Source of the DNA: an uncultured Bacteriovoracaceae bacterium
GTDB lineage: Bacteria > Bdellovibrionota > UBA2428
NCBI GenBank assembly: GCA_937952285.1
Contig: CALFZE010000130.1
Coordinates: 18,282 to 82,281, forward strand
DNA length: 64,000 nucleotides
Direction: 5' to 3'
Shown: in pieces, positions 33,861 to 64,000 of the stretch
Numbering within the stretch: the stretch's first letter is position 1
How the letters are laid out: each line of letters starts with the position of its first letter
Notes under the pieces: model-generated
What the model saw: the letters and a program-made list of their open reading frames with translations, nothing else
Database searches by the model: none
What the model was told of the DNA's origin: nothing
Program-made: the position numbers and the translations under genes

Positions 33861-34832
33861 TTAGCGGGCCGCGCGGCGATGACGAGCGCGCGCCAGTTTC
33901 GCGGGGCCGAAGGTGTCGAGCGCGGCCAGCGCGTTGTGGGCGAGGCAGCGCAGCCGCAGGTTCTCGGGCGTTTGCGTGCCGCCGAGCGCAAAAGCATGGA
34001 TATGATCAAATTGCAGTCCGCTCCGCGTCTCGCAGCTACGCCCCGTGCGGGGATCACGGTAGGTGCAGCGTCCTTCGTCGCGAGTCCAGACTTCGCGGCG
34101 CACTTGTGCCGGAACGTAGCGCGAAGCTTTCTTCGTCTTCATCTCCACCGGCGGAGGTGAATCCGCGCGCGGAATTTCGCAGGTCGAAGGCTTGGAAAAT
34201 CTCGCGCGCTCGCGAACCAAGGTTTTTCCTACGCAATAGGCGATGACTTCTTTAAGGCTCATCCCCGGCTTCGAGCCCGCGAGAAAGGCCTTCATCTCTT
34301 CAAGATTCTGGAGAAGCTCCTCATCCAGTACGAGATTCAAAGCGTGGTGCGTCGGCGAGACCTGTCGAAGCTTCTCCCGAATGAGCTTCGCCGGTTCCGT
34401 GGCCCGGCCCACCAACTCACGCTCCACTTCCCGGCGGGACTTACCCACGAGGGTGGCCAAAACCTCTCGCTTCGCTTCGGCGCTTTCGATCTTCTCCGTC
34501 CGAAAGAAGCTTTGCGCCTGCGACAGGGTGGATAGCGGCAGCGATCCCTCTTCAACCTTCGTTTCGAGTTCCGGCAGATCCCGCAAGAGGCGCATACTTG
34601 CAATACGCCGGTGAGCGGCTCCCTCGCTATACCCAAGCTCTTTCACGACATATTCGTAAAGGCTACTATAGCCGAGCCTGGCGAAGAGGTAGCGACGCTC
34701 GACTTCGCGCAGGTGCCGGAGCACCCGGACCGTGAGTTCGCGCTCCTGCTGCGCGAGTCCCTTCAAGGTTTCAAGCAGCAAATTATCCGAGAGCCTCTGC
34801 ACTTCCGTCGTCATAGACAGAAGTCCTAGCAC
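33861..34832 (-). CDS. DUF222 domain plus HNH endonuclease protein (REP13E12-like)
   Basis: The C-terminal HNH motif is LQFDHIHAFALGG...NLRLRCLAHN. The N-terminal domain resembles DUF222 of the actinobacterial 13E12-repeat HNH proteins. Confidence 0.7.
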   Translation of the reverse strand: MLGLLSMTTEVQRLSDNLLLETLKGLAQQERELTVRVLRHLREVERRYLFARLGYSSLYEYVVKELGYSEGAAHRRIASMRLLRDLPELETKVEEGSLPLSTLSQAQSFFRTEKIESAEAKREVLATLVGKSRREVERELVGRATEPAKLIREKLRQVSPTHHALNLVLDEELLQNLEEMKAFLAGSKPGMSLKEVIAYCVGKTLVRERARFSKPSTCEIPRADSPPPVEMKTKKASRYVPAQVRREVWTRDEGRCTYRDPRTGRSCETRSGLQFDHIHAFALGGTQTPENLRLRCLAHNALAALDTFGPAKLARARHRRAAR

Positions 34833-35088
34833 GCCTTTTTAGCGCGAGATTTTTCGCGTTAAACGCCCCGAAGATCTCCGAGGCCCCGCTTTCCGACGAA
34901 AACGGTTTTTCGTTCGCGATCCGCGCCCCACGCCGAATACGCGGCGGCACAATCCAAACCCGCGCACGAATAGCGGCCCACGCCTCGACCTACGCAAAAC
35001 GCCGTCAAGCGCGCACGAAAAAATAGTTTCCGTTGAGACGATGCGAGAGATCCGCTCCGCCGCGCTTCGGCCCGAGGGATAGGGCGCC

Positions 35089-35973
35089 TCAACCCTGGAC
35101 TTTGCCGACGCGCACGAGCTCGTGCACGAGCAGGTCGTCGATCTCGTCCTGCGCGATGACGGTGCGGCCCAGACCGTGTTGACGCGCGAGACGGCGGTTC
35201 TTGCGGAGCGAAAGCTCGAAGAAGACGCGCAAAGTCTTCAGATCGCGTTCGATCGTCGGGTAGTGAAACGGCGGGATCTCGAGATTCTCGAGCAGCGCGA
35301 TCGCGAGGGCCTCGGTCAGACCGCCCCGCGTTCCGCGCAGGTAGGCGCGCACCCGCGCGAGCCACGCCTCGGAAAGCACGACCGTATCGTCGCGGCCACG
35401 GCGAAAGCGCAGGAAACGCGCCGGTCGCTCGAAGCGCGCCAGGCTCTCGCGGGTCACGGCGTTCGGCGGCACGAGCCAAAGCAGGCGGAGCAAAGATCCG
35501 TAGGCCGCGCGCGCGAGGCGGCGGGCCTTGAAGCTGCCGTAGACCTCGTAGGGTTTGAAATCCGGGTGCCCGGCCGGGCGCGAGGTGAAGCGCAGCTCCA
35601 CGCCGTGCGGCCGCACGCGGAGCGCCAGGAAGCAGTAGCCTTCGGGCGACTTGTTCACGACGTTGTAGAAGGGGCGATACCGGCGCAGGAGCTCGTTCTC
35701 GCGCAGGAGCGCCGCCGCCTCGCTCGCGCATTCCTCGATGCGGACGGCGTGGGCTTGGCGCAAGAGACGCTGCACTTTGCGCGACACGCTCTCGGCCGTC
35801 GCGCGTTTGTAGGATTGGAGGCGCGCGCGGAGGTCCTTGGCCTTGCCGACGTAGAGAATCGTACCGCTCTCGCCCAGGAAGGTGTAAACGCCCGGCGTGC
35901 GCGGAAGTCCCCGGAAGAAATCCGCCCCTACCCGCCGGAGCAAAGCGTTCTCGAAGGAAAGCTCGGGCCGCAT
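35089..35973 (-). CDS. cho: Cho (UvrC-homologue) GIY-YIG excinuclease
   Basis: PRTPGVYTFLGESGTILYVGKAKDLRARLQSY aligns closely with E. coli Cho PTRPGVYLFHGESDTMPLYIGKSVNIRSRVLSH. The 294-aa length also matches. Confidence 0.75.
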   Translation of the reverse strand: MRPELSFENALLRRVGADFFRGLPRTPGVYTFLGESGTILYVGKAKDLRARLQSYKRATAESVSRKVQRLLRQAHAVRIEECASEAAALLRENELLRRYRPFYNVVNKSPEGYCFLALRVRPHGVELRFTSRPAGHPDFKPYEVYGSFKARRLARAAYGSLLRLLWLVPPNAVTRESLARFERPARFLRFRRGRDDTVVLSEAWLARVRAYLRGTRGGLTEALAIALLENLEIPPFHYPTIERDLKTLRVFFELSLRKNRRLARQHGLGRTVIAQDEIDDLLVHELVRVGKVQG

Positions 35974-36056
35974 GCCGCCAGCTTAGCCAAAGGCGCGCCG
36001 AAAACGAGAGGCTTTCACGCTCCCCGAAAGCCGCGACGCGCGCTAAGATCGGCACG

Positions 36057-36557
36057 ATGGAACAAGTCTTCGGCCCCCTTCGTTTTGCCCCCGTCGATTT
36101 GTCGCGGCACGAAGAAATCTGCCGCCGCTTTCGCGCCGATTCCTTCGCCGTGTCCTTTGGCGACGCGAGCCGCTTTCACGAGGAAGATGGCCTCGGCGGA
36201 GATCGCTACGTCGAATGGCTTCGCGGCAAGCAGGCGCGGGATCCCGCCTCGGTCGTCCACGTTTGGCAGGGCGACGAGATCATCGGACAAATGGAGCTCG
36301 GGCGTCTACGCGGCTTGGAAGGCGTGGGCTACGTGAATCTCTACTACCTGGCCCCCGCGCATCGCGGCCGGGGCCTTGCCAAGCATCTCGACGAATACGC
36401 CGCTTCGTACCTGCGCGGGCTCGGTTTTACGAAGGCGCAACTCTCCGTGAGTCCTTCGAACGCCCGGGCCATCGCTTACTACCAAAAAATGGGATGGCGT
36501 GACCTGGGACCGCGGGCCGACGAACCCAGCGTCCACTCCATGGAAAAAGATCTCTAA
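36057..36557 (+). CDS. GNAT-family N-acetyltransferase
   Basis: 166 aa with the acetyl-CoA-binding motif RGRGLAKHL. Confidence 0.75.
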   Translation: MEQVFGPLRFAPVDLSRHEEICRRFRADSFAVSFGDASRFHEEDGLGGDRYVEWLRGKQARDPASVVHVWQGDEIIGQMELGRLRGLEGVGYVNLYYLAPAHRGRGLAKHLDEYAASYLRGLGFTKAQLSVSPSNARAIAYYQKMGWRDLGPRADEPSVHSMEKDL

Positions 36558-36677: not shown

Positions 36678-37382
36678 ATGAGCGAAGCCTCGATCGAACT
36701 CACGAACGTCGTCAAAGAATACCAGCTCGGCAAGGTCACCGTGCCGGCCCTCAAGCAAGTGAGCTTGCGCATCGAGAACGGCGAATTCACCGTCATCGCC
36801 GGCCCGTCGGGCAGCGGCAAGACGACGCTCCTGAACCTCATCGGCTGCGTGGACCTCGCCACGCGCGGGAACGTCGTGGTGAGCGGCAAGGACACGGCCC
36901 AGCTCACGGAGCGCGAGCTCACGGACCTGCGCTTGCACCGCATCGGTTTTATCTTTCAATCCTTCAACTTGATCTCCGTGCTGAACGTCTACGACAACGT
37001 CGAGTTCCCCCTCCTCTTGATGAAGGACCTCGACGCGAAGGAACGCCGGGAGCGGGTCCTCCACTTTATCCATAAAGTCGGCCTGCAAGACCACATGAAG
37101 CATCGTCCGAACGAGCTTTCGGGCGGCCAGCGCCAGCGCGTCGCGATCGCGCGCGCGCTCGTCACGAAACCGCGCATCGTCCTCGCCGACGAGCCCACCG
37201 CGAACCTCGATTCGCAGACGGGCCAGAGCATCCTCGACCTCATGAAGCACATCAACGAGAGCGAAAAGACGACCTTCCTCTTTTCGACGCACGACGATCG
37301 CGTCATCCGCCAGGCCCGCCGCATCGTCAAGCTGCGCGACGGCGCGATCGAGTCGCTCGGTCTCGAAGGCCGCGCGAACTAG
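36678..37382 (+). CDS. ABC transporter ATP-binding protein (LolD/MacB-type)
   Basis: Walker A GPSGSGKTTLLN, signature LSGGQRQRVAIARAL, Walker B IVLADEPT. The start is taken at MSEASIELTNV; the track ORF begins 60 nt upstream. Confidence 0.9.
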   Translation: MSEASIELTNVVKEYQLGKVTVPALKQVSLRIENGEFTVIAGPSGSGKTTLLNLIGCVDLATRGNVVVSGKDTAQLTERELTDLRLHRIGFIFQSFNLISVLNVYDNVEFPLLLMKDLDAKERRERVLHFIHKVGLQDHMKHRPNELSGGQRQRVAIARALVTKPRIVLADEPTANLDSQTGQSILDLMKHINESEKTTFLFSTHDDRVIRQARRIVKLRDGAIESLGLEGRAN

Positions 37383-37393
37383 GGGAGCCTGGG

Positions 37394-39487
37394 ATGCTAC
37401 TTTGGAAGCTCGCGTTCCGTAACCTCTTCGTCCACCGCCTCAAAACGGCGGTGACGGGGCTTATCATCGTCTTCGGCACGACGCTCGCGATCGTGGGCAA
37501 CGCCGTGGTCGACGCCATCTCGGGCGGCATGCAGAAGAGCCTCACGAACAGCATCACGGGCGATTTGCAGATCTACGCGGGCGACGCGCCCGAGAAGATC
37601 GCCGTGCTCGGCGGCTTCGACGGCAACATGCCCGACATCGGCCACCTGAACGACTTCCGCAAGGTGAAAGACGCGCTCACCGCGAAAGTGCCGAACGTGC
37701 GCGACGTCATCCCGATGGGGATCAGCCAGGCCTTCTTCAACCCCGGCAACATCCTCGACCTCAAGCTCGCCGAGTTGCGCAAGACTTTCTACGAGAACCC
37801 GAGGCCGGTGGAGCGCCTCCAGACGCAGAAAGAGCACCTCGTCGAGATCGTACGCGACATCGAGCGCAGCCGCCGCGAGAACGCCGAGCTCCTGGGGAGC
37901 ATCTACGGCGGCGAGGAGCTCTTCAAGACGGCGCCGGCCGACATCGAGCGAGCCCTTTCGCCCGCATTCTGGGCGAACTTCGACGCCCACTTCGAGGAAC
38001 GCGTCGAGTTCCTGGCGAACCGCATGGCGCCCCTCATCTTCGACGATAACCAGCTCTTCCTGAGCTACATCGGCACCGTGCCCGAGCTCTTTCGCGACTC
38101 CTTCTCGCAGTTCGAGATCGCGAAGGGCGAAATGATCCCCGAGGGGGCGCGCGGATTCCTGTTCAGCGATTACATCTACGAGAACCAGGTCAAACACCGC
38201 GTGGCCCGGCGCCTCGACCAGATCAAAAAGCAGATCGATAAGGAAAAGCGCACGATCAAGGACACGAAGGAGCTCCAGGACCGCGTCGCGGCGAACGTCG
38301 CGCAGGCCGCCGAGGTCTACAACCAACTCGACCCGGCGCGGGGCCGCGAGCTCGCCCCCAAGCTCCGCGACTTCCTCAAGTCCGAAAAAACGACGATCGC
38401 GGAACTCGTGCAGGAGTTCCTCGCCACGACCGACGAGAACTTCGCGTCCCACTACGAGTTCTTCTACGCCGAGATCGCGCCCCACATCCTTCTCTACAAG
38501 GTCAAAGTCGGCGATGTCTTCCCGCTTACGGCCTTCACGAAGTCGGGCTATTCGTCTTCGACGAACGTCAAGGTTTACGGCACTTATCGTTTTAAGAGCT
38601 TCGAGAGTTCCCCGCTCGCTTCGAGCTTCAACATCCTCGACATGGTCTCCTTCCGCACGCTCTTTGGTTTCATGACCGAAGCGCGACGCCAAGAAACGGC
38701 CGACATCGACCGCGAAATGGGTGCCGCCGATGTGGGCCGCGACGACATCGAATCCCTCTTCGGGGGCGGAGCCACCGTCGTCCAGGAAGCCCGCGGCGAA
38801 GCAAAAGCGCTCCGGAGCCTGGGCCAAGAAAAGTTCGGACGCATCGATGCCGTCCGACGCGACGCCGACACCAAGTATTCCCGCGAAGAGATGGAAAATG
38901 GCGTCTTCATGAACGCCGCCGTCTTGCTCAAGGATTCCGCCCGGCTCGACTCGACGCTCGACGAGATCCGCAAGGTCTCGACCGACGACGGTCTCGGGAT
39001 CCAGGCCACGGGTTGGCGCGAGGCCGCCGGCGGCGTGGGACAGCTCACCGTGATCGTGCGTGGGGTGCTCTACCTCTTCGTGATCGTCATCTTCGGCGTG
39101 GCGACCTTCATCATCATGAACTCGATGCTCATGGCGACGCTCGAGCGTGCCCGCGAGATCGGCACGATGCGCGCGATCGGGGCCCAGCGTTCCTTCCTCA
39201 TGGGGCTCTTCCTGCGCGAGACCTTCGTGCTGAGCTTCCTCTTCGGACTCGTTGGGACCCTGATCGGCGTGGGCATCGTGCTCGCCGTCGGCGCGCAGGG
39301 CATCCCCTCGATGGGCGACGTGACGACCTTCTTCTTCTCGGGCGACCGGCTTTACCTGAGCGTGAACCCGCTCCACATCTTGATCGTCTTCGGCTGCATG
39401 ACCCTCGTCGCCGTCGTTTCGACCCAATACCCGGCCTGGCGCGCGATGCGAATCTCGCCGCTCGAAGCCATGCAGCAGAGCGAGTGA
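37394..39487 (+). CDS. ABC transporter permease, FtsX/MacB-like, with a ~500-aa periplasmic domain
   Basis: 697 aa: TM1, a large extracytoplasmic domain, then three C-terminal TM helices with the FtsX-like signature (ATLERAREIGTMRAIGAQR). Confidence 0.85.
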   Translation: MLLWKLAFRNLFVHRLKTAVTGLIIVFGTTLAIVGNAVVDAISGGMQKSLTNSITGDLQIYAGDAPEKIAVLGGFDGNMPDIGHLNDFRKVKDALTAKVPNVRDVIPMGISQAFFNPGNILDLKLAELRKTFYENPRPVERLQTQKEHLVEIVRDIERSRRENAELLGSIYGGEELFKTAPADIERALSPAFWANFDAHFEERVEFLANRMAPLIFDDNQLFLSYIGTVPELFRDSFSQFEIAKGEMIPEGARGFLFSDYIYENQVKHRVARRLDQIKKQIDKEKRTIKDTKELQDRVAANVAQAAEVYNQLDPARGRELAPKLRDFLKSEKTTIAELVQEFLATTDENFASHYEFFYAEIAPHILLYKVKVGDVFPLTAFTKSGYSSSTNVKVYGTYRFKSFESSPLASSFNILDMVSFRTLFGFMTEARRQETADIDREMGAADVGRDDIESLFGGGATVVQEARGEAKALRSLGQEKFGRIDAVRRDADTKYSREEMENGVFMNAAVLLKDSARLDSTLDEIRKVSTDDGLGIQATGWREAAGGVGQLTVIVRGVLYLFVIVIFGVATFIIMNSMLMATLERAREIGTMRAIGAQRSFLMGLFLRETFVLSFLFGLVGTLIGVGIVLAVGAQGIPSMGDVTTFFFSGDRLYLSVNPLHILIVFGCMTLVAVVSTQYPAWRAMRISPLEAMQQSE

Positions 39488-39497
39488 GGAATCCGAA

Positions 39498-40856
39498 ATG
39501 AGCCAACTCTTCACCATCGCCCGCCGCAACCTCATCAGCCACCGCGGACGCACGCTCATCCTGGGCGGCGCGATCGCGCTCGTCACTTGTCTCATGGTCT
39601 TCATGATGGCCCTCACCCGCGGCATCAAGGCCCGTATGATCGAGAACGCCACGGCTCTCTCAACGGGGCACGTGAACGTAGGTGGTTTTCTCAAGATCAG
39701 CCAAAGTTCGGCCGCGCCGATCGTCACGCAAGCCGCGCGCGTGCGCGAGCTCCTTGCGCGCGAAGTTCCCGAGGCCACCCTCATCGTGGACCGCGTGCGG
39801 GCCTACGGCAAGATCATCTCGGATACGAACTCGATCATGGTGCCCATCACGGGCATCAACATGGCCACGGAAAAGCGCATCCTGGGCGGGCTCAACCTGG
39901 CCCGCGTGCGCGACTACGTGGAGGCCTACGCCCCCGCCCCGGGCGCCCCGGAAGCCGAAGGGAGCATGGCCGACCTCGAGCAACGCGGCGGTCTCGCGAT
40001 CTTCGCTTCGCACGCCCGCAAGCTCAAGGCCCGCGTGGGCGACGTCGTGACCGTCTCGATGCCGACCTACCGCAACGTCTACAACACGAAGGACGTGCGC
40101 ATCGCCGCCATCCTGCAGGACCTCGGCATGATCTCGAGCTTCACCATGTTCATGCACCACGAAGACGTGCGCGAGATCTACGACATGGCGGCCGACACGA
40201 CGAGCGTCTTCCAGATCTACCTGCCTTCGCTCGACGCCGTGCCCGCCGTCGAGGACCGCCTCCGCAAAGCACTCTCCGCCGCGAGCTTTACGCTCATGGA
40301 CAAGGACGCGAACCCCTACTGGATGAAGTTCGAACGCGTGGCCGGCGAGTCCTGGACGGGCCAACGTCTCGACCTCACGAACTGGGAAGACGAGACTTCG
40401 TTCCTCAAGTGGGTCCTGGATATCTTCAACGCGCTCACCTTCGCCCTCACTTTCGTGTTGATGGTCATCATCGTGATTGGCCTCATGAACAACATGTGGA
40501 TGGCCATCCGGGAGCGTACCTCGGAGATCGGCACGATGCGCGCCGTGGGGCTGCAGCGGCGGGGCGTGCTCGTCATGTTCCTGCTCGAATCGCTCCTGCT
40601 CGCGACGGCGAGCGTCGGGATCGGCATTGTGGCCGGCTCGCTGCTCGCCACGGGCGTCGCTGCCCTCGAGATCCCGATCCGATCGGACGCCTTCGTCATG
40701 TTCTTCATGTCGAACTCGCTCTGGCTCCAGGTCGGCGCGGGCGACCTGGCCTTCACCTTCGTCCTGCTCTCGACCTTGCTCATGGTGGGCGCGCTGCTGC
40801 CCGCCTACCGCGCGAGCAAGCTCGAACCCATCACGGCGATTAACCACGTCAATTAA
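39498..40856 (+). CDS. ABC transporter permease, FtsX/MacB-like (second subunit)
   Basis: 452 aa with the same topology (AIRERTSEIGTMRAVGLQR). Confidence 0.85.
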   Translation: MSQLFTIARRNLISHRGRTLILGGAIALVTCLMVFMMALTRGIKARMIENATALSTGHVNVGGFLKISQSSAAPIVTQAARVRELLAREVPEATLIVDRVRAYGKIISDTNSIMVPITGINMATEKRILGGLNLARVRDYVEAYAPAPGAPEAEGSMADLEQRGGLAIFASHARKLKARVGDVVTVSMPTYRNVYNTKDVRIAAILQDLGMISSFTMFMHHEDVREIYDMAADTTSVFQIYLPSLDAVPAVEDRLRKALSAASFTLMDKDANPYWMKFERVAGESWTGQRLDLTNWEDETSFLKWVLDIFNALTFALTFVLMVIIVIGLMNNMWMAIRERTSEIGTMRAVGLQRRGVLVMFLLESLLLATASVGIGIVAGSLLATGVAALEIPIRSDAFVMFFMSNSLWLQVGAGDLAFTFVLLSTLLMVGALLPAYRASKLEPITAINHVN

Positions 40857-40887
40857 ACGCGGGCGCGACCCGCAGGAAGGACCGAAC

Positions 40888-41670
40888 ATGAAACGCCCGC
40901 TCAAGATCCTCGGACTCGCGGCCCTCGCCGCGTTCTCCGCTCCCGTGGCCCGCGCCGCCCTCTCCGAGAAGGACGCGCTCGAGCTCGTGAAGCTCGTCGA
41001 CGAGAAGCAACGCAACTCGGGCGATTACGCCTCGCTTTGCTTCGTCAAGGAAACCGAACGCAAGAAGGAGCCCAAGGTCTTCCAGGCCATGGTCTATCGC
41101 CGCGACGCCGACGACAAGTTCATGATCCTCTTCACCAAGCCCAAAGAGGAGGCCGGCAAGGGTTACCTCAAGATCGACAAGAACCTGTGGATGTACGACC
41201 CCTCCACGGGCAAGTGGGAGCGCAAGACGGAGCGCGAGCGCATCGGCGGCACGAACTCGCGGCGCTCGGATTTCGACGAATCGCGTCTCGTCGAGGAGTA
41301 CGACATCAAGGTCGACGGCGAAGGCACGCTCGGCAACTTTAAGGTGCACAAACTCAAGCTCACCGCGAAGAAGGGCAAAGACGTCGCCTACCCCGTGCTG
41401 GGCCTCTGGATCGACCAGGCCGACAAGAACGTGCTCAAGCGCGAGGAGTTCTCGCTCTCGGGCAAGCTCATGCGCACGACCTTCTACCCGAAGTGGACCA
41501 AGAAGTTCAGCGAGTCCAAGAAGGCCGACGTCTGGATCCCCGAAGAGATGCGTATTTTCGACGAGCTCGAGAAGGGCAACTCGACGGTCGTCACGATCAA
41601 GGAAACCGACCTCAAGCCCCTCGATGCCAACATCTTCACCAAAGCCTGGATCGAATCCAAGAGTAAATAG
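40888..41670 (+). CDS. Periplasmic LolA-like protein (outer-membrane lipoprotein-sorting-protein family), paralog of 15245-16051
   Basis: The start MKRPLKILGLAALAAFSAPVARA is preceded by GGAAGGACCGAAC. The 260-aa protein has the LolA-like architecture; the 5' part of the track ORF is spurious. Confidence 0.7.
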   Translation: MKRPLKILGLAALAAFSAPVARAALSEKDALELVKLVDEKQRNSGDYASLCFVKETERKKEPKVFQAMVYRRDADDKFMILFTKPKEEAGKGYLKIDKNLWMYDPSTGKWERKTERERIGGTNSRRSDFDESRLVEEYDIKVDGEGTLGNFKVHKLKLTAKKGKDVAYPVLGLWIDQADKNVLKREEFSLSGKLMRTTFYPKWTKKFSESKKADVWIPEEMRIFDELEKGNSTVVTIKETDLKPLDANIFTKAWIESKSK

Positions 41671-41672
41671 GG

Positions 41673-42944
41673 ATGACCATGACGAAGATTAAGCTGCAGT
41701 CCCTGACTTACGCGCTTCTCGTGGCGAGCCTTCCGGCCTCCGCGCAGGATGCGGCTCCGCAACCCGCCCCGCCGACTACCGAAGCCGAAGGTGGCACGAG
41801 CGAGGATTTCGAGCGCGGGTTCGGCGCCGAAGGCGGGATGTCGGAGGCCGACAAGGGCACGACCGACGCGGACCGACTCAAGATCGGCGGCACGCTCGCC
41901 GCGGATCTCTACGTCTTCGGCACCCGGGATCGCGACTACCTCAAGAACCTCAACACGCTTTGGGTCTACGCCGACGCGCAGCTACGCGAGGACGTGCGGG
42001 CCTTCGCCAAGTTCCGTGGCGTCGTCGATGCCCTCCCGACGGGCGGCGCGGTCGGCGCCAGCATCCCGGCCGCGCGCTCCGACGTCGAGGAGCTCAAGCT
42101 CATGTTTAACGCCGGCAAGGCCGTCTTCTTCACGGCCGGCCGCCAGAAGATCAAATGGGGCGCGGGTAAGTTCTGGAATCCGACCGACGTCATGAACTCC
42201 GCGCGCCGCGACCTGCGCTACACGGACGACCGGCGCTCGGGTATGGACCTGCTCAAGACCCACGTGCCGGTAGGCCCGGCGAATTTTTACCTCGTGCAAG
42301 GTTTCAACGGCGCCACCCGCGTGAACGAGATCGCGCACGCCGCGCGCGTCGAAGTTCCGTGGAGTTCGGGCGAGGCTTCGCTCAGCGTGGCCAAGCGCCG
42401 CGGCGAGAACACCGTGCTCGGCGCCGACCTCTCCTTTGCCGTGTGGGATCTCGATCTGCACGCCGAAGTCGCGGGCTCGAGCCCTTCGAATCAACTTCGC
42501 TTCGGCCCCACGGGCCCCGTCGCCACGAACGGAACGCACGTGAGCTGGGTCGCGGGCGCGAGCTACGAGCTCCCGTACGGCGACAACGACTCGCTTAGCC
42601 TTATCGTCGAGTACTTCCGCAACGGCGACGGCTACGCCAAGGCCGACTACGCTTGGCCGATCGCGAACGGGGCCTACGCCCCCTACTACCTCGCCAAACA
42701 GTACCTGCTCGCGATGCTGCTCGTGCCGACGCCTGGCTCGTGGAACGACACGACCTTCAGTCTGCTCAACCTCTTTAACCTCGAGGACGGCAGCGCCTAC
42801 ACCAAGTTCACGACGGGCTTCAGCTTCCTGCGCGACCTCACCTGGCAGATCGGCGCGAGCCTCAACTACGGCAAGTCCGACGGCGAGCTCCGCTTCGGCG
42901 GCCAACGCTACGGCCTCGAAACCCGCCTCCTCGCCAATTTCTAA
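41673..42944 (+). CDS. Outer-membrane beta-barrel protein, paralog of 16072-17358
   Basis: Signal peptide and C-terminal F. GRQKIKWGAGKFWNPTDVMN matches the GRRIRSWGIADGVNPTRFF of the other OMP. Confidence 0.65.
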   Translation: MTMTKIKLQSLTYALLVASLPASAQDAAPQPAPPTTEAEGGTSEDFERGFGAEGGMSEADKGTTDADRLKIGGTLAADLYVFGTRDRDYLKNLNTLWVYADAQLREDVRAFAKFRGVVDALPTGGAVGASIPAARSDVEELKLMFNAGKAVFFTAGRQKIKWGAGKFWNPTDVMNSARRDLRYTDDRRSGMDLLKTHVPVGPANFYLVQGFNGATRVNEIAHAARVEVPWSSGEASLSVAKRRGENTVLGADLSFAVWDLDLHAEVAGSSPSNQLRFGPTGPVATNGTHVSWVAGASYELPYGDNDSLSLIVEYFRNGDGYAKADYAWPIANGAYAPYYLAKQYLLAMLLVPTPGSWNDTTFSLLNLFNLEDGSAYTKFTTGFSFLRDLTWQIGASLNYGKSDGELRFGGQRYGLETRLLANF

Positions 42945-42955
42945 AAGGAGCGTTC

Positions 42956-43600
42956 ATGTCTGACGCCACCTTGGCCTTGCTCTTGGGACTCGGGGCTTTG
43001 ACCACGGTGATCGTGATCGTCGTGGTGGCGTTGTCGCGGGGACGCGGCGACCTCCGCTATTTTGAGACGCATTCCATCGCCGAGTTTCGTCGGGACGTGG
43101 CCTTCATAGATCTCGCGAGCGCGGACTACGATTTCTTCGCCCTCCATCCCATCGCGGAGTGGTCGCGCACGGAACTCCTCCTCTTGAACGAGGCGAAGAC
43201 CAGCGTTGGCCGTTACCTGCGCCCGGCCATTGGGCTCTGGATGAACTTCGAACTCAACGGGCAGGCTTACGTCGTGCGCTTTCCGAAGTATGAAGTCGGC
43301 ACGAAGCTCTTGGACGAGAGAGAAACCTTACTTGCGACGGCCGCGCGGGAGTCGATGGGATCGGACGGTATCCGGGTGGACTTCGCGGATGGCTCGCGAC
43401 TCCACGCTCGGCCACCCAAGCCGGAAACGGCGAGCATCTTCAAGGCCCCCCGCATGAATTGGCTCGATGCGAGCGGCCACATCGTGGCGCGCACGCTTCA
43501 CGTGAGCGGCAAACGCGCCTCGAACGTTTACGTCTTCGCCCTCCGCAAAGACATCACGCCGATGCAACGCCTGGCCGTCTTCGCCTACTTCGCAAGCTAG
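42956..43600 (+). CDS. Membrane-anchored hypothetical protein (214 aa)
   Basis: One N-terminal TM helix. The start is 9 nt after the OMP stop. No domain recognised. Confidence 0.5.
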   Translation: MSDATLALLLGLGALTTVIVIVVVALSRGRGDLRYFETHSIAEFRRDVAFIDLASADYDFFALHPIAEWSRTELLLLNEAKTSVGRYLRPAIGLWMNFELNGQAYVVRFPKYEVGTKLLDERETLLATAARESMGSDGIRVDFADGSRLHARPPKPETASIFKAPRMNWLDASGHIVARTLHVSGKRASNVYVFALRKDITPMQRLAVFAYFAS

Positions 43601-43621
43601 GTCCGGCTAGGCGTCAGGCAT

Positions 43622-43716
43622 TTTTTCGTGTCGCAACTGCGTCATTTAACGCGTGTGCGACACGAAAAAGCGCCGGGGGCGCCTAGCCGGGGGCGCCTAG
43701 CCGGGGGCGCCTAGCC
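43622..43716. repeat. Composite intergenic repeat: 14-bp perfect inverted repeat with a 20-nt spacer, followed by 3 tandem copies of CCGGGGGCGCCTAG
   Basis: TTTTTCGTGTCGCA (43622-43635) pairs with TGCGACACGAAAAA (43656-43669). Tandem 14-mers sit at 43673, 43687 and 43701. Confidence 0.55.
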
Positions 43717-43806
43717 TGACGCCTCCTTCGCTGCGGTTTGTCGATGCTGCATTCTTCGTGGGGAGCGGGCTAGGCGAGACGAAAACGGAACCGTAGAATC
43801 GGCGCC

Positions 43807-44936: not shown

Positions 44937-46202
44937 ATGCGTTCTTTTTCGCTGCTGGTCGCGCTCGGGCTCGGAGGATCGGCCTTCGCGGCCACGCGCG
45001 AACTCTCGGAGAGCACGGTGCCACGGCTCGGCGCCCACCTCCCGCAAGGGAACGACGCCGTTGAACATCTTTACGGCGAACTGGGCACCTGGCGCGAAAT
45101 CAAGGACCTCAGCTACACCGTCAACTACTACGAAATCAAACCTCCCCTCGCCGAACACCCCTTCGATAAAGGGGCCCTCTTGCGGATCGCTCGCGATCGC
45201 CACACGACCGCGCTCGACGCCAACCGAATCCTGCTCACGGACGCGAACCGCGACGGCGAGCTCGACGCGACCTCGGGCGGCGCCGCCTTCATGGAGCACA
45301 ACGCCATCGGGGACGGCGGCGACCGGAAGGGTTGGCCCTTCCACCAGTTTTGGTTCGACGACAACGACTTCGCGCAATCCCTCGCGCGGGCCTACGCGCG
45401 CCCCCTTCCCTGGGGCCTCTTCGACCCCGGACGGCCTTTGCGCTGGAGTCCGGTGGCCGGACGCCCGAACTACACGCCCTACCCCTCCGCGCACAAGTAC
45501 GTGGACCAGCTCGCGCTCAACGGAATGCACCGCCTCAACACAAAAAACCTGCCGGCGGCGCTCCGTGATTTCCGCGACGCGGTCACGCTCCTGCAGGCGA
45601 AGTACGACGATGCCGAGGGCCGCTACCACTACCCCGGCCTCACGAGCTTCTACCATCTGGGCCTCACGAAGATTCTCGCCGAGTGGCTCCTGCGCGAAGC
45701 ACGCCTGTCCCGCGGCGAGCGCGCGGAGATCCTGCAGCACGCGCGAAGCCAACACGCGCTGCTGCTCACCCACCAGGTCCGTCACCGGGTCTCGGGCGCG
45801 CGACTCGGTTGGAAGAGCGGACTCAAACCCACGGACCTCATCAACACGGAGACGACGAGCGCCTCGGCGCTCGCGCTCGGGGCCGGCGCGCTCTGGACCC
45901 TCGAGCCCGAGGACTTCGTCGCGAACGACTACCGACTGCCGGAAGGCCGCTACGTGGCCGAGATCGAGGCGCGACCGAAGTCCGGTCCCCAAGCCACTTT
46001 CTTCCTGCGCGTGCGGCAAGCCACGGGCACGCTTCGGGTCCAACGCTTCGAAGTCGAGGGCACGCCCGGCCAGACGAAGTGGCAAAGGTTCTCGATCCCT
46101 TTCGCGCAGCGCCGGGGGCGCGTGCCGCTCAAGTTCGACGTGGGCGAGACCGCGAACGAAGCGATCGAGTTCGGTCCGCTGCGGATCTTCGCGGCGAAGT
46201 GA
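44937..46202 (+). CDS. Secreted hypothetical protein (421 aa)
   Basis: Signal peptide MRSFSLLVALGLGGSAFA; no recognised domain. Confidence 0.55.
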   Translation: MRSFSLLVALGLGGSAFAATRELSESTVPRLGAHLPQGNDAVEHLYGELGTWREIKDLSYTVNYYEIKPPLAEHPFDKGALLRIARDRHTTALDANRILLTDANRDGELDATSGGAAFMEHNAIGDGGDRKGWPFHQFWFDDNDFAQSLARAYARPLPWGLFDPGRPLRWSPVAGRPNYTPYPSAHKYVDQLALNGMHRLNTKNLPAALRDFRDAVTLLQAKYDDAEGRYHYPGLTSFYHLGLTKILAEWLLREARLSRGERAEILQHARSQHALLLTHQVRHRVSGARLGWKSGLKPTDLINTETTSASALALGAGALWTLEPEDFVANDYRLPEGRYVAEIEARPKSGPQATFFLRVRQATGTLRVQRFEVEGTPGQTKWQRFSIPFAQRRGRVPLKFDVGETANEAIEFGPLRIFAAK

Positions 46203-51246: not shown

Positions 51247-51634
51247 GCTCGTTCGGCTCGCGAAGGACGAAGCCCTCGCGGCCGGCGTCGTCGGGCACGA
51301 AGGATCCCGGCTCCGGGTGCTCTTCTCGGAGCTTCGTCGCTGGCATTCCCCGACGGAGTGGATCGTCTTCTACCGGCACGCGGGCACCTACTACTACCCA
51401 CTCGCCTTCGAATTCCGCTCGGTGAACAACAACCTGCTGCACTTGGTCCTGGAACTCGGGATCCGGGACTTCGACGTCTTGGCGAGCTTCGTACAGGATT
51501 CCCTGCAGAGGCACGAGCGCCTCGAAACCGTCGTGCGCGCGCTCGTCGTGGAGATGCCGTCGGAGCCCCCCTATGCGGTGCCGCTCCGAGACTTCTCCAT
51601 TTCCGAGGCGCTCCGCGATCTCGTCTACTTGTGA
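51227..51634 (+). CDS. Hypothetical protein (135 aa)
   Basis: Overlaps the upstream ORF by 20 nt; same strand. Confidence 0.4.
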   Translation: MSRDLFELVRLAKDEALAAGVVGHEGSRLRVLFSELRRWHSPTEWIVFYRHAGTYYYPLAFEFRSVNNNLLHLVLELGIRDFDVLASFVQDSLQRHERLETVVRALVVEMPSEPPYAVPLRDFSISEALRDLVYL

Positions 51635-52929
51635 GCGTCCTTGAGCTCCGAAACGCGGACCGGGATCTGGAAGGACTTCTCGATCGCGATCTTCGCCTTG
51701 ATGAACTCGATCTTCAGTTCGGAGCGGCGCTTCTTGGCCTCGAGCCAGGTTTCCTCGGCGCCCTTGACGTCGGCCCCGTTCTTCACGCCCCGACCGAACT
51801 CGGCCAGCGTGGAGCGGTAGAGCCGCTCGGCCCGGGCTTCGTTGCTCACCTCGATGTCCACGCGTTGGGTGATCGACTGCAGTTTGCGGATGCCCGACTC
51901 GACCTCGGCCATGCCGCCGAGGAGCGCCTGCTTGGCGTTGAATTCGTCGCGTCGTAGCTCGGCCTCGGCCCGCGCGCCTTCCGCGCTCGTGCGGAAACCC
52001 GAAAAAAGCTCCCAGGAAGCCATCACCCCCGCCGAATAACTCACCCGCTCGCCGTCGAAACGATCGGCCAAAGGTAAAGCCCCGAAGCGGGCCTCGACGT
52101 CGAGCTTGGGCATCCACCCCGCCCGCGACGCCTTGAGCGCCGCGAGCGATCCCTGCGCCGTCAGGCTGGCCTGCCGCACGCTCTCGCTCCTCTCCTTCAC
52201 GAGGGCCAAGTAGGAATCGACCGTCCCCTCGAGGTGCCAATGCGGAAGCTCGCCGCGCGGCTCGAAGCCCATCCCGAGCTCCGGCCCGAGGCGTCGCACG
52301 AGACTCAGCTTGATCTCGTCGAGCTCCTGCTTCGTTCGATTGAGTTCGGACAGCAGCGAAGAATCCCGGAGCTCGAAATCCATGAGATCCGACTCGGAGG
52401 AAAGTCCCGAAGCCTTGCGCCGTTTGACCGCCCCCAGGTGCTTCGCGTTCAGCTCGATCGACTCCGCCACGTAGTCGTGGACGCGCTTCTTGAAGAGGTA
52501 GTCGTAAAAGAGGCCTTCGACCTCGAGCCGAAGCTCGTTCACGGCCTGCTCGTAGCGGCTTTCGGAGAGCTGCCGGAGCGTGTCGGCTCGCCGACCTTCG
52601 TTACGATCGGCGAGCCCATTGAAAAGGTTCCAACGGCCGTAGACGAAGCCGACGGGCGCCGACTCCCGCGCGCCCGCGCTCCCTTCGACCTCGAAGCCCC
52701 CGGCGACGCCGAGCTTCGGGTAGAAGTTCGAGCGCGACGAACGAAGCGCGGCCGCCTGGACCGAGACCTCCGCCTTCAAAGCCTGCACCCCGAAGTTGTT
52801 CGCGACGGCGTAGGCTTTGGCGTCTTCGACGCCGACGTAGCGGACGCCCGGCTCCGCTCCCCACGCGAGGGACGAAGCGAGGGTACCCAGGACCAAGGCC
52901 AGTCGTCCAAGCGGCTCCATAGGCTTCAC
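51625..52929 (-). CDS. Outer-membrane efflux protein (TolC/CzcC-like OMF)
   Basis: 434 aa with a signal peptide and two tandem OEP repeats rich in coiled-coil heptads. Confidence 0.75.
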   Translation of the reverse strand: MKPMEPLGRLALVLGTLASSLAWGAEPGVRYVGVEDAKAYAVANNFGVQALKAEVSVQAAALRSSRSNFYPKLGVAGGFEVEGSAGARESAPVGFVYGRWNLFNGLADRNEGRRADTLRQLSESRYEQAVNELRLEVEGLFYDYLFKKRVHDYVAESIELNAKHLGAVKRRKASGLSSESDLMDFELRDSSLLSELNRTKQELDEIKLSLVRRLGPELGMGFEPRGELPHWHLEGTVDSYLALVKERSESVRQASLTAQGSLAALKASRAGWMPKLDVEARFGALPLADRFDGERVSYSAGVMASWELFSGFRTSAEGARAEAELRRDEFNAKQALLGGMAEVESGIRKLQSITQRVDIEVSNEARAERLYRSTLAEFGRGVKNGADVKGAEETWLEAKKRRSELKIEFIKAKIAIEKSFQIPVRVSELKDAHK

Positions 52930-53368: not shown

Positions 53369-56300
53369 TTATTCATTTCCTTCGTCCTCCCCTCGGAGGA
53401 CGCTTCTTTCGGACGCCTTCCGGGCGAAGGCGTAGAACGCGGTGGGCGTGACGACGAAATCCAGGATCGTCGAGCTCAGCAGACCGCCGACGATGACGAC
53501 CGCCACGGGGTGAAGGATCTCGCTCCCGGGTTGTCCCTTCGCGAAGACGAGCGGCATCAAGCCGAGCGCGGCCGTGAGGGCCGTCATCAAGACGGGAATG
53601 AGCCGCTCGAGCGATCCGCGGATGACCATCTCCTTCGTGAACTTCTCGCCCTCGTGCTTCATGAGGTGCAAGTAGTGCGAGATCATCATGATCCCGTTGC
53701 GGCTCGCGATCCCGCAGAGGGTCACGAGGCCGATGAGGCTCGCCACCGAGAAGACGCGATCGATCGCGAAGAGCGAATAGAGCCCGCCCATAAAGGCGAG
53801 CGGGACCGTGAGCATGATCTGCGCCGTGATCATCGCCGACTTGAAATGCGCGAAGAGCACGAAGGCGATGCCGAGTACGCTCACCAAGCTGAACAATACG
53901 ATCCGGCGCGTCGCCGAGCGCTGGGCCTCGAACTGGCCGCCGTACGCGACGTAGTAGCCTTCGGGGAGCTCGACCTTCTCCTGCACCCGCCGTTGGATGC
54001 TCTCCACGACGCTGCCGAGGTCGCGGCCGGCCACGTTGCCGTAGACCACGATGCGTCGCATGCCGTTCTCGCGGTTGACCTGGTTCGGTCCGCTCGACTC
54101 GTAGACGTCCGCGATCATGTCGAGGGTCACGCGCCGGCCGTCGGGCATCGTCTTGAAGGGCGTATTCTTCATGAGCTCCAGGTTGCCGCGCGAGACGTCG
54201 TCAAAACGGTAGAAGACGTCGTAGACTTTCTGGTCCTCGATGACCTGCGAAACGATGCGGCCGCCGAAGGCGAGCTCGAGCATCTTGGAGACCTCGCCCA
54301 CGTTGAGACCGTAGCGCAGCGTCTCCTCGCGCAGGAGATGGATCTTGACCTGGGGAATGAGGGCCTGCTGCTCGACGTTCAGATCGACGAGCCCCTCGAT
54401 ATCCTGGATCGCCCCGCGAAGCTCGGCCGCCTTGACCCGTAGCATGGCGAGGTCGCTCCCGAAGATCTTGATGGCGAGCTGGGCGTTCACGCCCGACAGG
54501 AGGTGATCGAGCCGGTGCGAGATCGGCTGGCCGATGTTGACCGCGACGTTCGGGATGGCTTCCAGGTTCTCGCGCAGCTCGTCGAGGATGGCCTCGCGTG
54601 AGCGCGTCGCGTCCTTGCGGAAGGAGACGTCGATCTCGGAGACGTTAACGCCTTCGGCGTGCTCGTCGAGCTCGGCCCGGCCCGTCCGGCGCGAAACGAA
54701 CTTCACTTCGGGGGTCTTCAGGATCAGGTTTTCGGCCTCGGAGCCAATCGCGTTCGATCGCTCGAGCGAGGTTCCCGGCACCGAAACGACCGAGACCATG
54801 GCCGTGCCTTCGTTGAACTTCGGCAGGAAGTCCTTGCCCATGAAGGGGAGCAACGCGATCGAGCCGAGGAACATCACAAAGGCGACCGACAGCACTTTTT
54901 TCGGGTGATCGAGCGCCCACTCCAGGATGCGGCGATCGAAGGCCTTGAGCTTCGTGACGATCTTCGTCTCGTGGTGTTCCTTGAACTCCGCGTTCCGGAA
55001 GAAGAAAGAACAGAGCACGGGCGTCACGGTGAGCGACACGAGAAGCGACGCGCCCAGCGCCGTCACGTAAGCGATGGCGAGCGGGGTGAAGAGACGACCC
55101 TCGAGTCCATCCAGCGCGAAGAGCGGGATGAAGACGAGCGCGATGATGACCGTCGCGAGGACGATCGAGTTGCGAACCTCGCTCGACGCCTCGAAGACGA
55201 TCTTGAGGATCGACCGCTTGGCGCCCGCGGCCCGGTTCTCCTTGAGACGCCGAAAGACGTTCTCGACGTCGACGATGGCGTCGTCCACGACCTCGCCCAC
55301 GGCGATGGCGAGACCCCCGAGGGTCATCGTATTCACCGAAAGCCCGAAGAGCTCGAAGACGATCGCCGTCACGAGGAAGGACAGCGGAATGGCCGTGAGC
55401 GTGATGGCCGTCATGCGGAGGTTCGCCAGGAAGAGCAGCAGGATGACCGTCACGAGGATGCTGCCGTACTTGAGCTTGCCCTTGACGCCCGCGATCGAGA
55501 CCTCGATGAAGTCCGACTGCTTGAAGATCTCCGGGTTCACTTCGACGCCCTTCGGAAGCGTCCGTTGGATCTCGGCGATGGCCGCGTCGACCCGCTCCGT
55601 GAGCGCGACGGTATCCGTGCCGGGTTGTTTTTGGATCGACATCACGACGGCGGGCTTGGCCATGAAGGAACCGTCCCCGCGCTTGGTGCGCGGGCCGATC
55701 TTCACTTCGGCGACGTCCTTGATGAGGATTGAGCGGCCCAGGTGAACGCCGATGACCGTGTTCTCGATATCCTCGACGCTCTTCACGGCGCCGATGTTGC
55801 GGACAAGAAACTCCTTCTGATCCTTATCCAAGAAGCCGCCCGTCGTGTTCGTACCGACGTGACCCAGGTACTCGTCGAGCGCCTGCAGGTCGAGCTGGTA
55901 GTTCTTGAGCTTGGTCGCCGAGAAAAGGATCTGGTACTGCTTGAGCCCGCCCCCGATCGAGATGACCTGGGCGATGCCCGGGATCGTGAGGAGCCGGGGC
56001 CGGATCGTCCACTCCGCCAGGGTCCGCAGGTCGAGGGGCGTGACTTCGGGGTTGCTCGAGGACAACGCGATCGTCTGGATCTGCCCCATGATCGAGCTGA
56101 TCGGCCCCATCACGGGCTGGATCCCCTCGGGAAAATGCTCCGCCGCGACCGCGAGTTTCTCCGCGACGAGCTGCCGGTTGCGGAAGATGTCCGTTCCCCA
56201 GTCGAACTCGACGTAGACCACGGACAGGCCGACGCCCGACGACGAGCGGATCCGCTGCACCCCGGGGAGGCCGTTCAGGTTCGACTCGAGCGGCAAGGTC

Positions 56301-56494
56301 ACGAGCGTCTCGACCTCCTCGGGCGCCATGCCACCCGCCTCGGTCATGATCGTCACGGTCGGCCGGTTCAAATCCGGAAAGACGTCGATGGGAAGTTTGA
56401 AGAGCGTGGCCCCGCCCCATACGACGATCAGCGCCACGAGGGCGAGAACGACGAGCCGGTGCCGAAGGGCCGCCTTGATGATGAGATCTAACAT
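53369..56494 (-). CDS. Heavy-metal-efflux RND transporter permease (CzcA/CusA family)
   Basis: 1041 aa with 12 TM helices and two large periplasmic loops. N-terminus MLDLIIKAALRHRLVVLALVALIVVWG...DVFPDL. Confidence 0.9.
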   Translation of the reverse strand: MLDLIIKAALRHRLVVLALVALIVVWGGATLFKLPIDVFPDLNRPTVTIMTEAGGMAPEEVETLVTLPLESNLNGLPGVQRIRSSSGVGLSVVYVEFDWGTDIFRNRQLVAEKLAVAAEHFPEGIQPVMGPISSIMGQIQTIALSSSNPEVTPLDLRTLAEWTIRPRLLTIPGIAQVISIGGGLKQYQILFSATKLKNYQLDLQALDEYLGHVGTNTTGGFLDKDQKEFLVRNIGAVKSVEDIENTVIGVHLGRSILIKDVAEVKIGPRTKRGDGSFMAKPAVVMSIQKQPGTDTVALTERVDAAIAEIQRTLPKGVEVNPEIFKQSDFIEVSIAGVKGKLKYGSILVTVILLLFLANLRMTAITLTAIPLSFLVTAIVFELFGLSVNTMTLGGLAIAVGEVVDDAIVDVENVFRRLKENRAAGAKRSILKIVFEASSEVRNSIVLATVIIALVFIPLFALDGLEGRLFTPLAIAYVTALGASLLVSLTVTPVLCSFFFRNAEFKEHHETKIVTKLKAFDRRILEWALDHPKKVLSVAFVMFLGSIALLPFMGKDFLPKFNEGTAMVSVVSVPGTSLERSNAIGSEAENLILKTPEVKFVSRRTGRAELDEHAEGVNVSEIDVSFRKDATRSREAILDELRENLEAIPNVAVNIGQPISHRLDHLLSGVNAQLAIKIFGSDLAMLRVKAAELRGAIQDIEGLVDLNVEQQALIPQVKIHLLREETLRYGLNVGEVSKMLELAFGGRIVSQVIEDQKVYDVFYRFDDVSRGNLELMKNTPFKTMPDGRRVTLDMIADVYESSGPNQVNRENGMRRIVVYGNVAGRDLGSVVESIQRRVQEKVELPEGYYVAYGGQFEAQRSATRRIVLFSLVSVLGIAFVLFAHFKSAMITAQIMLTVPLAFMGGLYSLFAIDRVFSVASLIGLVTLCGIASRNGIMMISHYLHLMKHEGEKFTKEMVIRGSLERLIPVLMTALTAALGLMPLVFAKGQPGSEILHPVAVVIVGGLLSSTILDFVVTPTAFYAFARKASERSVLRGEDEGNE

Positions 56495-57292: not shown

Positions 57293-57294
57293 GA

Positions 57295-62409: not shown

Positions 62410-62694
62410 CTGGAGAAGCACCGAGGCGGCTGCCAAAGGGCTGCCTATAGAACAGCCGGGGATCGAGCCCTCTCGGTCCATTTCAACGGCGATCTTTCCG
62501 ACGCTCAGCGCTTTCTTAAGGTTCGCGGAGTACGACGGGCGCTAGTCGCCTACTGGGCAGATTAACTCGCCAACTTACGAGAACGAGCGGAACAAAGCCC
62601 GTACGCGAGGTATTACGACCACAATGCTGTCATGGACCTCGTGGACTATTAGCGCGCCTATTCTCCATAGGCCCGCAACCCTAGCCTTGCGCTA

Positions 62695-63983: not shown

Positions 63984-64000
63984 TGGCTGACTTTCAAAAA

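Follow-up and report, generated by a model that had tools for sequence, protein, structure and literature searches.

We examined a stretch of 64,000 nucleotides (nt) from an uncultured Bacteriovoracaceae bacterium of the Bdellovibrionota (assembly GCA_937952285.1, contig CALFZE010000130.1), hereafter the window, and in particular a run of six genes, g1 to g6, at positions 36678-43600 of its + strand. The conserved system consists of the first five of these, which encode an ATP-binding cassette (ABC) ATPase, two unlike permeases, a soluble periplasmic protein of the LolA fold class and an outer-membrane beta-barrel; g6 is an addition seen in this lineage only. On balance we favor the view that g1-g5 form a self-contained export route across the envelope for hydrophobic cargo, an accessory exporter in which a soluble shuttle would take the place of a tunnel. 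As cargo, a lipid is most likely, or some other small molecule of hydrophobic or amphipathic character, be it an endogenous one or a toxic compound that is expelled. Transport of hydrophobic molecules to or across the outer membrane without a tunnel or a bridge is understood for only a few systems (Lol, Mla), and the present operon is a compact candidate, a single transcription unit that provides the motor, the carrier and the receptor in the outer membrane.

A five-gene unit conserved in two phyla

The features of the operon are the following (aa, amino acids; TM, transmembrane).

36678..37382, + strand: g1, ABC ATPase, 234 aa
37394..39487, + strand: g2, long type VII ABC permease, 697 aa, FtsX domain at the C-terminus only
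39498..40856, + strand: g3, short type VII ABC permease, 452 aa, MacB_PCD and FtsX domains
40888..41670, + strand: g4, soluble periplasmic carrier of the LolA fold, 260 aa, PF17131
41673..42944, + strand: g5, outer-membrane beta-barrel, 423 aa, no Pfam family
42956..43600, + strand: g6, lineage-specific protein with one N-terminal TM helix, 214 aa
43617..43674, no strand assigned: hairpin, 26-nt arms and 6-nt loop, 81% complementary

A preliminary description of this DNA had reported six head-to-tail genes here, and all six open reading frames (ORFs) are indeed present, consecutive and on the + strand. Their GC content at third codon positions (GC3) is 0.81-0.90, against about 0.63 overall, which indicates that all six are coding. 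Of the intergenic distances given earlier, 3-31 nt, the upper value stands, the measured gaps from g1 to g6 being 11, 10, 31, 2 and 11 nt. The description had also counted the 214-aa protein as part of the system, and in this it was mistaken: a homology search of 5.8 billion proteins returned g6 itself as the sole match, and the gene is missing from the 82 other related loci searched, its only matches being to L006 and L007, which are this organism's own DNA. It is a real, co-transcribed, lineage-specific gene outside the conserved module, with an AAAGGAG ribosome-binding site before its start, which lies 11 nt past g5, and a GC3 of 0.81. Its first 30 residues are hydrophobic, and the RGRGD that comes after them suggests a C-terminal domain on the cytoplasmic side. 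This charge pattern, together with the short length, the absence of a coiled-coil or lipoyl signature and the lack of conservation, led us to reject g6 as a substitute for a membrane fusion protein (MFP).

In contrast to g6, the other five genes keep close company. Considering the 63 related loci with sufficient upstream flank, g1-g2-g3-g4-g5 occur in identical order in 61, in both Bdellovibrionota and Myxococcota, and this strict conservation as a unit fits the dedicated extraction-and-delivery system that had been proposed. The proteins of the related loci share 59-85% (g1), 55-81% (g4), 34-70% (g2), 35-68% (g3) and 28-53% (g5) of their residues with those of the window. One locus (L027) has a g5 homologue without g1-g4 in the 8 kb upstream, and in another (L060) g2, g3 and g5 are present and g1 and g4 were undetected. 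The latter comes from the same metagenome-assembled genome (MAG) as locus L068, so that some genomes carry two copies of the barrel. The window DNA itself is also present in MAG GCA_002343545.1, and its nearest relatives are Bdellovibrionota MAGs.

The barrel gene gives the best view of how widely the module is spread. A pattern scan found relatives of g5 in 352 of 185,579 species genomes, and a profile search of a 1.84-billion-protein library retrieved 2414 cluster representatives, with 572 at E <= 1e-30; all are unnamed in every source consulted. Matches in Bdellovibrionota come from Bacteriovorax-like organisms, Bdellovibrio, Oligoflexia and Silvanigrellaceae, and those in Myxococcota from Anaeromyxobacter, Archangium, Myxococcus, Corallococcus, Hyalangium, Vitiosangium, Polyangia and Bradymonadaceae; there is also one match in a Spirochaetales MAG.

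The genes around the module differ from locus to locus. The sole recurrent upstream neighbor is a MarR-family regulator, found immediately upstream in 14 loci, and single loci have MarR_2, PadR, HTH_3/HTH_31-type or MmpR5-type helix-turn-helix regulators in this place. Downstream, no neighbor recurs except DUF302, in seven loci. No HlyD-type adaptor was found among the 106 upstream and 132 downstream neighbor ORFs of the related loci, and neither here nor in the relatives does an OEP gene adjoin the module. MarR-type regulators, variable neighborhoods, carriage on plasmids (see below) and two copies in one MAG all favor an accessory exporter of lipids or small molecules, and the module is probably accessory rather than the housekeeping Lol pathway.

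The ABC motor

The g1 protein matches ABC_tran (PF00005, E = 3.7e-33) and has intact Walker A (GPSGSGKT), signature (LSGGQRQR) and Walker B (LADEPT) motifs in its translation; an alternative in-frame GTG start lies at 36618. Its best NCBIfam match is to LolD (TIGR02211, 231.6 bits), below the cutoff of 307.75, and it scores nearly as high against DevA (222.7), DarD (215.3) and FtsE (212.3). The closest solved structures are those of MJ0796, YtrE, the MacB nucleotide-binding domain and LolD.

In g2, Pfam detects FtsX at residues 561-689 only. An AlphaFold2 (AF2) model built from 35 homologues (pLDDT 81.5) places TM1 at residues 15-51, a periplasmic region of about 495 aa at approximately 52-546 and TM2-4 at 547-685, in good agreement with the periplasmic domain of about 500 aa that had been ascribed to one of two FtsX-type permeases alongside a single ATPase. 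Two large helical insertions, at 120-214 and 259-364, stand out in this region of the model, and the insertion is conserved, with many invariant columns in residues 193-425. A Foldseek search with the model gave LolE/LolC as best matches (9rlc_E, 5e-11; target TM-score 0.57-0.67), followed by MacB, YtrF, HrtB and FtsX. The model thus predicts a type VII ABC fold for g2, i.e. an N-terminal TM helix, a large periplasmic domain and three further TM helices.

The shorter permease, g3, has MacB_PCD at residues 25-257 and FtsX at 316-444, and its closest solved sequences are MacB, an Spr0695-type permease, YtrF and FtsX, with LolE weaker (1.4e-3). Against the LolCE family (TIGR02212; cutoff 362.45 bits) g2 reaches 70.4 and g3 59.7 bits, in both cases over the C-terminal FtsX part only. 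In related loci g3 is always found together with g2, and it is presumably the partner of g2 in a heterodimer.

The carrier and the barrel

Both the LolA-like protein and the beta-barrel of the preliminary description are borne out. The carrier, g4, matches the LolA_like family PF17131 (136.3 bits, gathering threshold 30, E = 1.2e-39) over profile positions 2-183 of 184; in precomputed annotations this family appears as 'TP_0789-like'. Neither g4 nor five of its relatives matched the LolA family proper (PF03548; TIGR00547 in NCBIfam), for PF03548 even at E <= 10, and PF17131 was their only family match, apart from a weak match of one relative to DUF1329; g4 has no NCBIfam match. In the PDB, g4 matches NE2245 (3buu, 'LolA superfamily', 6.6e-11) and 4z48 (4.6e-5), which has been counted among the LolA-superfamily structures (PMC6394551). 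The protein carries a signal peptide, cleavable by signal peptidase I at an A-x-A site, and no lipobox cysteine, and the same is true of 72 of 73 relatives; a carrier that is soluble and periplasmic in nearly all cases fits a shuttle role. After the ATPase it is also the best conserved member of the module (55-81% identity).

The barrel, g5, has a signal peptide and a C-terminal Phe, with no Pfam family match and no PDB sequence match. Its AF2 model, from 32 homologues, is a beta-barrel (pLDDT 82, pTM 0.75) with 18-20 strand segments according to DSSP and approximately 18 by manual count. The top 50 Foldseek matches in the PDB are to porins (MOMP, OmpF/OmpC-type, Occ porins including OccAB1, and OmpU) with TM-scores of about 0.5. 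We rejected an Omp85-like identity for g5, as BamA and TamA are missing from these 50 matches; TolC is missing from them as well. The motif GRQKIKWGxGKFWNPTD, in a 32-residue loop between strands 5 and 6, is invariant (in looser notation, GRQxxxWGxGxFWxPxD), and the N-terminal helices are conserved too. The genes for carrier and barrel are translationally coupled, with 2 nt between the g4 stop and the g5 start here and shared or overlapping stop and start codons in relatives.

There is a faint similarity between the barrel and DUF1302 (PF06980; gathering cutoff 23.2 bits). While g5 itself has no match to this family, sub-threshold matches were obtained with two of its relatives, P0030 (16.0 bits, E = 0.0064) and P0032 (12.6 bits), and with the Ralstonia protein described below (19.8 bits, E = 4.4e-4). 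These matches are colinear, fall at profile positions of about 4-248 and on the N-terminal third, and cover the GRQ...WG...NPxD motif. The similarity would tie the module to the DUF1302/DUF1329/RND systems and not to Lol, a link that is suggestive but no proof, and carrier and barrel look like a unit that may be coupled to either RND or ABC motors. The barrel had earlier been presented as the outer-membrane acceptor of a system resembling Lol; a barrel there is, although not a one-off, given the size of its family and this DUF1302 similarity.

A rearranged version on beta-proteobacterial plasmids

A weak tblastn match of g5 on plasmids pointed to pRp12D0 of Ralstonia pickettii and p1 of Burkholderia thailandensis, which carry the following modules.

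L088, 3634-10529: plasmid module of Ralstonia pickettii
L089, 1634-9137: plasmid module of Burkholderia thailandensis

On both plasmids the order is a PF17131 LolA-like protein, an ABC ATPase, an 830-aa permease, a 381-aa hypothetical protein and a UbiB/ABC1 kinase. The 381-aa protein is a homologue of g5 (hhalign probability 97.9%, E = 3.6e-13). The permease contains two FtsX and two MacB_PCD stretches and is thus a fused one, which supports a heterodimer of g2 and g3, while the occurrence of the same parts in a different order supports their being a functional unit. Beta-proteobacteria as a class have the canonical LolCDE-LolA-LolB pathway, so that in these hosts at least the module is accessory. 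A VTT (DedA-like) domain gene adjoins the kinase gene in B. thailandensis and lies in Ralstonia at a distance of about 6 kb, and a gene of the isoprenylcysteine carboxyl methyltransferase family lies near the Ralstonia module. Since UbiB/ABC1, VTT and isoprenylcysteine methyltransferases are lipid-handling families, this may be a hint of a lipid cargo, perhaps an isoprenoid one.

A proposed mechanism and its alternatives

In the scheme that we infer, two copies of g1 would power a heterodimer of the unlike permeases g2 and g3. As is the case for MacB and LolCDE, ATP binding and hydrolysis would act by mechanical transmission on the periplasmic domains, and these domains, not a channel through the membrane, would pick up a greasy molecule, either out of the inner membrane's outer leaflet or out of the periplasm. 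The enlarged and conserved periplasmic domain of g2 is a likely platform for docking and loading of g4, which would receive the cargo and shield it on its way across the periplasm. There g4 would dock on g5, and g5 would insert the cargo into the outer membrane or release it outside; the 32-residue invariant loop and the conserved N-terminal helices of the barrel are candidate elements for docking or gating.

Several points weigh against this proposal. What the data show directly is gene content, folds, family membership, signal peptides, synteny and distribution; which way transport runs, what is carried and which of the proteins touch one another are inferred. Neither the DUF1302 nor the DUF1329 similarity reaches its Pfam threshold, and a MarR-type regulator is lacking in the closest Bdellovibrionota loci, including the window. 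Among the neighbor ORFs of related loci there is no conserved biosynthetic or cargo gene, so that the cargo cannot be read from the context. That g4 is very highly conserved from one phylum to the other would be fitting, too, if its ligand were a conserved endogenous one, for example the acyl anchor of lipoproteins. Finally, the present data do not distinguish a diffusing shuttle from a static bridge made of the g2 domain, g4 and g5. Our literature searches on TP0789, on PF17131 and on LolA-like proteins combined with FtsX/MacB found no experimental study of the module.

A bolder version of the export proposal, which we put forward tentatively and think rather doubtful, is that the module represents a third general type of transport across the Gram-negative envelope, beside tunnels (MFP and TolC) and bridges (Lpt, AsmA-like). 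Here a MacB-class extractor, a LolA-fold shuttle and a DUF1302-like barrel of their own would carry a specific endogenous outer-membrane lipid, or surface-exposed lipoproteins, in Bdellovibrionota and Myxococcota. If true, this would supply the missing step of outer-membrane insertion or flipping in bacteria without LolB.

One may also consider alternative explanations, the best of which, although we regard it as unlikely, is a dedicated lipoprotein pathway. The ABC complex would then extract a subset of acylated proteins, g4 would carry them, and g5 would insert them or flip them to the surface, either as a LolB substitute or in a Slam-like manner. The structural matches of g2 to LolE and LolC and the LolA fold class and high conservation of g4 speak for it. 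Bacteria without LolB must finish lipoprotein insertion in some other way (PMC11784454), Myxococcus xanthus apparently has at least two routes of lipoprotein secretion (PMC3222651), and a comparable computational proposal has been made for BBJ23-29 of Borrelia (PMC13078400). Yet the sequence of g3 is nearer to MacB, YtrF and FtsX than to LolE, the LolCE, LolD and LolA family thresholds are not reached, and g5 is porin-like rather than of the Omp85 or Slam type. Moreover, MarR-type regulators and plasmid carriage would be unusual for a protein-sorting machinery, and no lipoprotein gene is conserved nearby.

An inward route, in the manner of Mla retrograde transport or uptake, appears less probable again. 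In such a route the barrel would admit or extract a compound and g4 would carry it to the ABC complex for delivery to the inner membrane. A barrel, a soluble lipid carrier and an ABC complex do parallel the Mla architecture, and DUF1302/DUF1329 genes are found in catabolic clusters for hydrophobic substrates, with mutants that grow poorly on Tween 20 and on fatty esters (bioRxiv 10.1101/2020.07.04.188060; 10.1101/072470). In contrast, the neighbors of the module here are not catabolic, and AmeABCD, a system of the DUF1302/DUF1329 kind, works in the efflux direction (PMC6394551). In structure, g2 matches type VII transporters. To our knowledge, all characterized transporters of this type (the MacB class, with MacB, LolCDE and HrtBA) expel or extract outwards and have no path for import across the membrane.

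It is very improbable in our view that the module is the housekeeping Lol system in a divergent form, with g1 as LolD, g2 and g3 as the LolC/E-like permeases and g4 as LolA, to which a porin gene of no relation has become attached. The window contains no other FtsX, ABC or LolA-like gene, i.e. no paralogue of g1-g4, and JGI labels the permeases 'ABC-type lipoprotein release transport system permease', both of which could be taken in its favor. However, the scores are far under the equivalog cutoffs (70 and 60 versus 362 bits for the permeases, 232 versus 308 for the ATPase), g4 has no LolA-family match, and the order ATPase-permease-permease-carrier-barrel is unlike the typical lolF-lolD operon (PMC11784454). 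With the barrel syntenic in 61 of 63 loci, g5 is not a passenger, and relatives of it were found in just 352 of 185,579 species genomes. Homologous modules also exist on the Ralstonia and Burkholderia plasmids, in hosts with canonical Lol, and Treponema pallidum has LolA and LolCDE besides TP0789, the namesake of PF17131 (bioRxiv 10.64898/2026.05.05.717303).

Least credible of all is that an ordinary MacB-type ABC transporter for efflux or peptide resistance merely neighbors an unrelated periplasmic protein and porin: no experimental link joins the parts and the structural matches of g5 are to generic porins only, but 61 of 63 loci from two phyla retain both the order and the adjacency at 28-85% identity, the same parts occur in another order on beta-proteobacterial plasmids, the gaps are 2-31 nt, and the start and stop codons of g4 and g5 overlap in relatives.

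The export proposal may not greatly surprise a specialist, but it offers a well-defined, testable candidate for shuttle-type envelope export, conserved across two phyla, mirrored on beta-proteobacterial plasmids and with a barrel family that lacks a Pfam entry. Because the module occurs in cultured bacteria, some of them genetically tractable (Myxococcus, Corallococcus, Archangium and Anaeromyxobacter, besides the Burkholderia thailandensis and Ralstonia plasmids), it can be tested directly.

The likely end of the operon and the surrounding genes

The hairpin at 43617-43674, directly 3' of g6, likely marks the end of the operon. Just past it, at 43672-43716, is a perfect 14-nt tandem repeat, GCCGGGGGCGCCTA, in 3.2 copies. 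Both lie in a 206-nt spacer (43601-43806) in which further short inverted repeats pair with the spacer start, and the hairpin and repeat could be a terminator or an element similar to repetitive extragenic palindromes. Consensus scans for sigma-70 promoters and terminators gave no excess over shuffled controls, and Rfam at its gathering threshold yielded no RNA family anywhere in the 64-kb window.

Other features of the window are listed below.

33861-34832, - strand: DUF222-like gene with an HNH-like C-terminus, nuclease-type, upstream of the operon
35089-35973, - strand: GIY-YIG gene, nuclease-type, upstream of the operon
44937-46202, + strand: secreted 421-aa protein with signal peptide, GC3 0.85, no Pfam family, two genes downstream of the operon
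51625-52929, - strand: OEP gene, the sole one in the window, 8 kb from the operon and beside the RND gene
53369-56494, - strand: RND pump gene, ACR_tran in public annotation
56522-57358, - strand: 278-aa ORF upstream of the RND gene, no Pfam match

Also upstream of the operon, on the + strand, is a gene for a GNAT acetyltransferase. Two much longer ORFs that overlap the GIY-YIG gene, 34859-36055 (- strand, GC3 0.50) and 35122-36336 (+ strand, GC3 0.71), were rejected as non-coding, the real gene being that for the GIY-YIG protein. Downstream, a Zn-dependent alcohol dehydrogenase gene is followed by the gene of the secreted 421-aa protein and then by a BrkB gene. No HlyD/MFP or OEP domain was detected in the genes flanking the operon. 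As the 278-aa ORF upstream of the RND gene has no Pfam match, the RND/OEP efflux operon is also without a recognizable membrane fusion protein. The last part of the window (62001-64000) has a GC content of 0.52, compared with 0.61-0.69 elsewhere, and may be foreign or non-coding DNA.

Comparison with known systems

With LolCDE/LolDF-LolA the module shares the type VII complex, with a separate ATPase and 4-TM permeases that have large periplasmic domains, as well as the pairing of two unlike permeases (compare LolC with LolE), a soluble carrier whose fold class is that of LolA, and the absence of MFP and TolC. It differs in that its proteins fall under the curated LolCE and LolD cutoffs, its carrier belongs to PF17131 and not to the LolA family, and g2 has approximately 250-300 extra, mostly helical, periplasmic residues. 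The gene order is different as well, and the outer-membrane partner is an operon-encoded barrel of about 18 strands rather than LolB or a bifunctional LolA. The resemblance to Lol on which the preliminary description was built is one of fold class only; at the level of families it did not hold. The same description had treated the lack of LolB as a distinguishing feature, which it is not. lolB is unidentifiable outside beta- and gamma-proteobacteria, and a lolF-lolD operon plus lolA is the usual arrangement (PMC11784454); in a member of the Bdellovibrionota its absence is expected and carries no information. In T. pallidum the two kinds of protein exist side by side, as LolA (TP0333) and LolCDE-like proteins (TP0580-0582) are found in addition to TP0789 (bioRxiv 10.64898/2026.05.05.717303).

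MacAB-TolC has the same class of permease (FtsX plus MacB_PCD) and an ATPase of the mechanotransmission type. The difference is that here neither a MacA adaptor nor a TolC/OEP gene is found in or beside the operon, in the window or in relatives, so the reported lack of a MacA-type adaptor holds also for the genes just outside the operon. In addition, the ATPase is a separate polypeptide, and a soluble carrier and a barrel replace the tunnel.

The DUF1302/DUF1329/RND systems also combine an inner-membrane pump, a periplasmic protein of the LolA superfamily and a dedicated barrel, with no MFP or TolC. In Castellaniella defragrans, AmeABCD is a monoterpene efflux system with a DUF1302 barrel, a LolA-like DUF1329 protein and an RND pump (PMC6394551), and cofitness ties the DUF1302, DUF1329, BNR and RND genes together in Shewanella, Kangiella and Pseudomonas (bioRxiv 10.1101/072470). 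The P. putida counterpart is PP_0765/0766 with PP_2018/2019, and the poor growth on Tween 20 and on fatty esters mentioned above is that of P. putida mutants (bioRxiv 10.1101/2020.07.04.188060). Whereas the DUF1302/DUF1329/BNR/RND (HAE3) systems use a proton-driven RND motor, the motor here is an ATP-driven ABC transporter of the MacB class; the operon contains no RND (HAE3/COG1033) or BNR/COG4447 gene, and the conserved partners are the ABC ATPase and FtsX permeases. The carrier is shorter (260 versus approximately 450 aa), and so is the barrel (approximately 400 versus 600 aa). The module suggests that the pair of carrier and barrel known from DUF1329/DUF1302 may be a transferable unit for RND or ABC motors.

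In Porphyromonas and Prevotella, genes for an 'outer membrane lipoprotein-sorting protein' occur with genes for MMPL transporters and ABC ATPases in TetR-regulated operons, which are induced more than 100-fold in low iron and strongly under low iron/heme stress (PMC10434189). The likeness lies in a PF17131-type protein (by NCBI product name only) with inner-membrane exporters and a repressor of the small-molecule type. The partner there is of the MMPL/RND type, the ABC proteins are not of the FtsX kind, a barrel of the g5 type is not known from these operons, and the phylum is another one.

The nearest published idea is the computational proposal for BBJ23-BBJ29 of Borrelia, which combines an ABC transporter resembling MacB with a LolA-like protein and a barrel of the Omp85 kind (PMC13078400), likewise without LolB. 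There a permease homodimer was proposed, the Omp85-like barrel is BBJ25, and two TPR proteins are included. The present module has two permeases that differ from each other, one being much enlarged, its barrel is porin-like or DUF1302-like and of an unannotated family, there are no TPR proteins, and it is widespread in Bdellovibrionota and Myxococcota.

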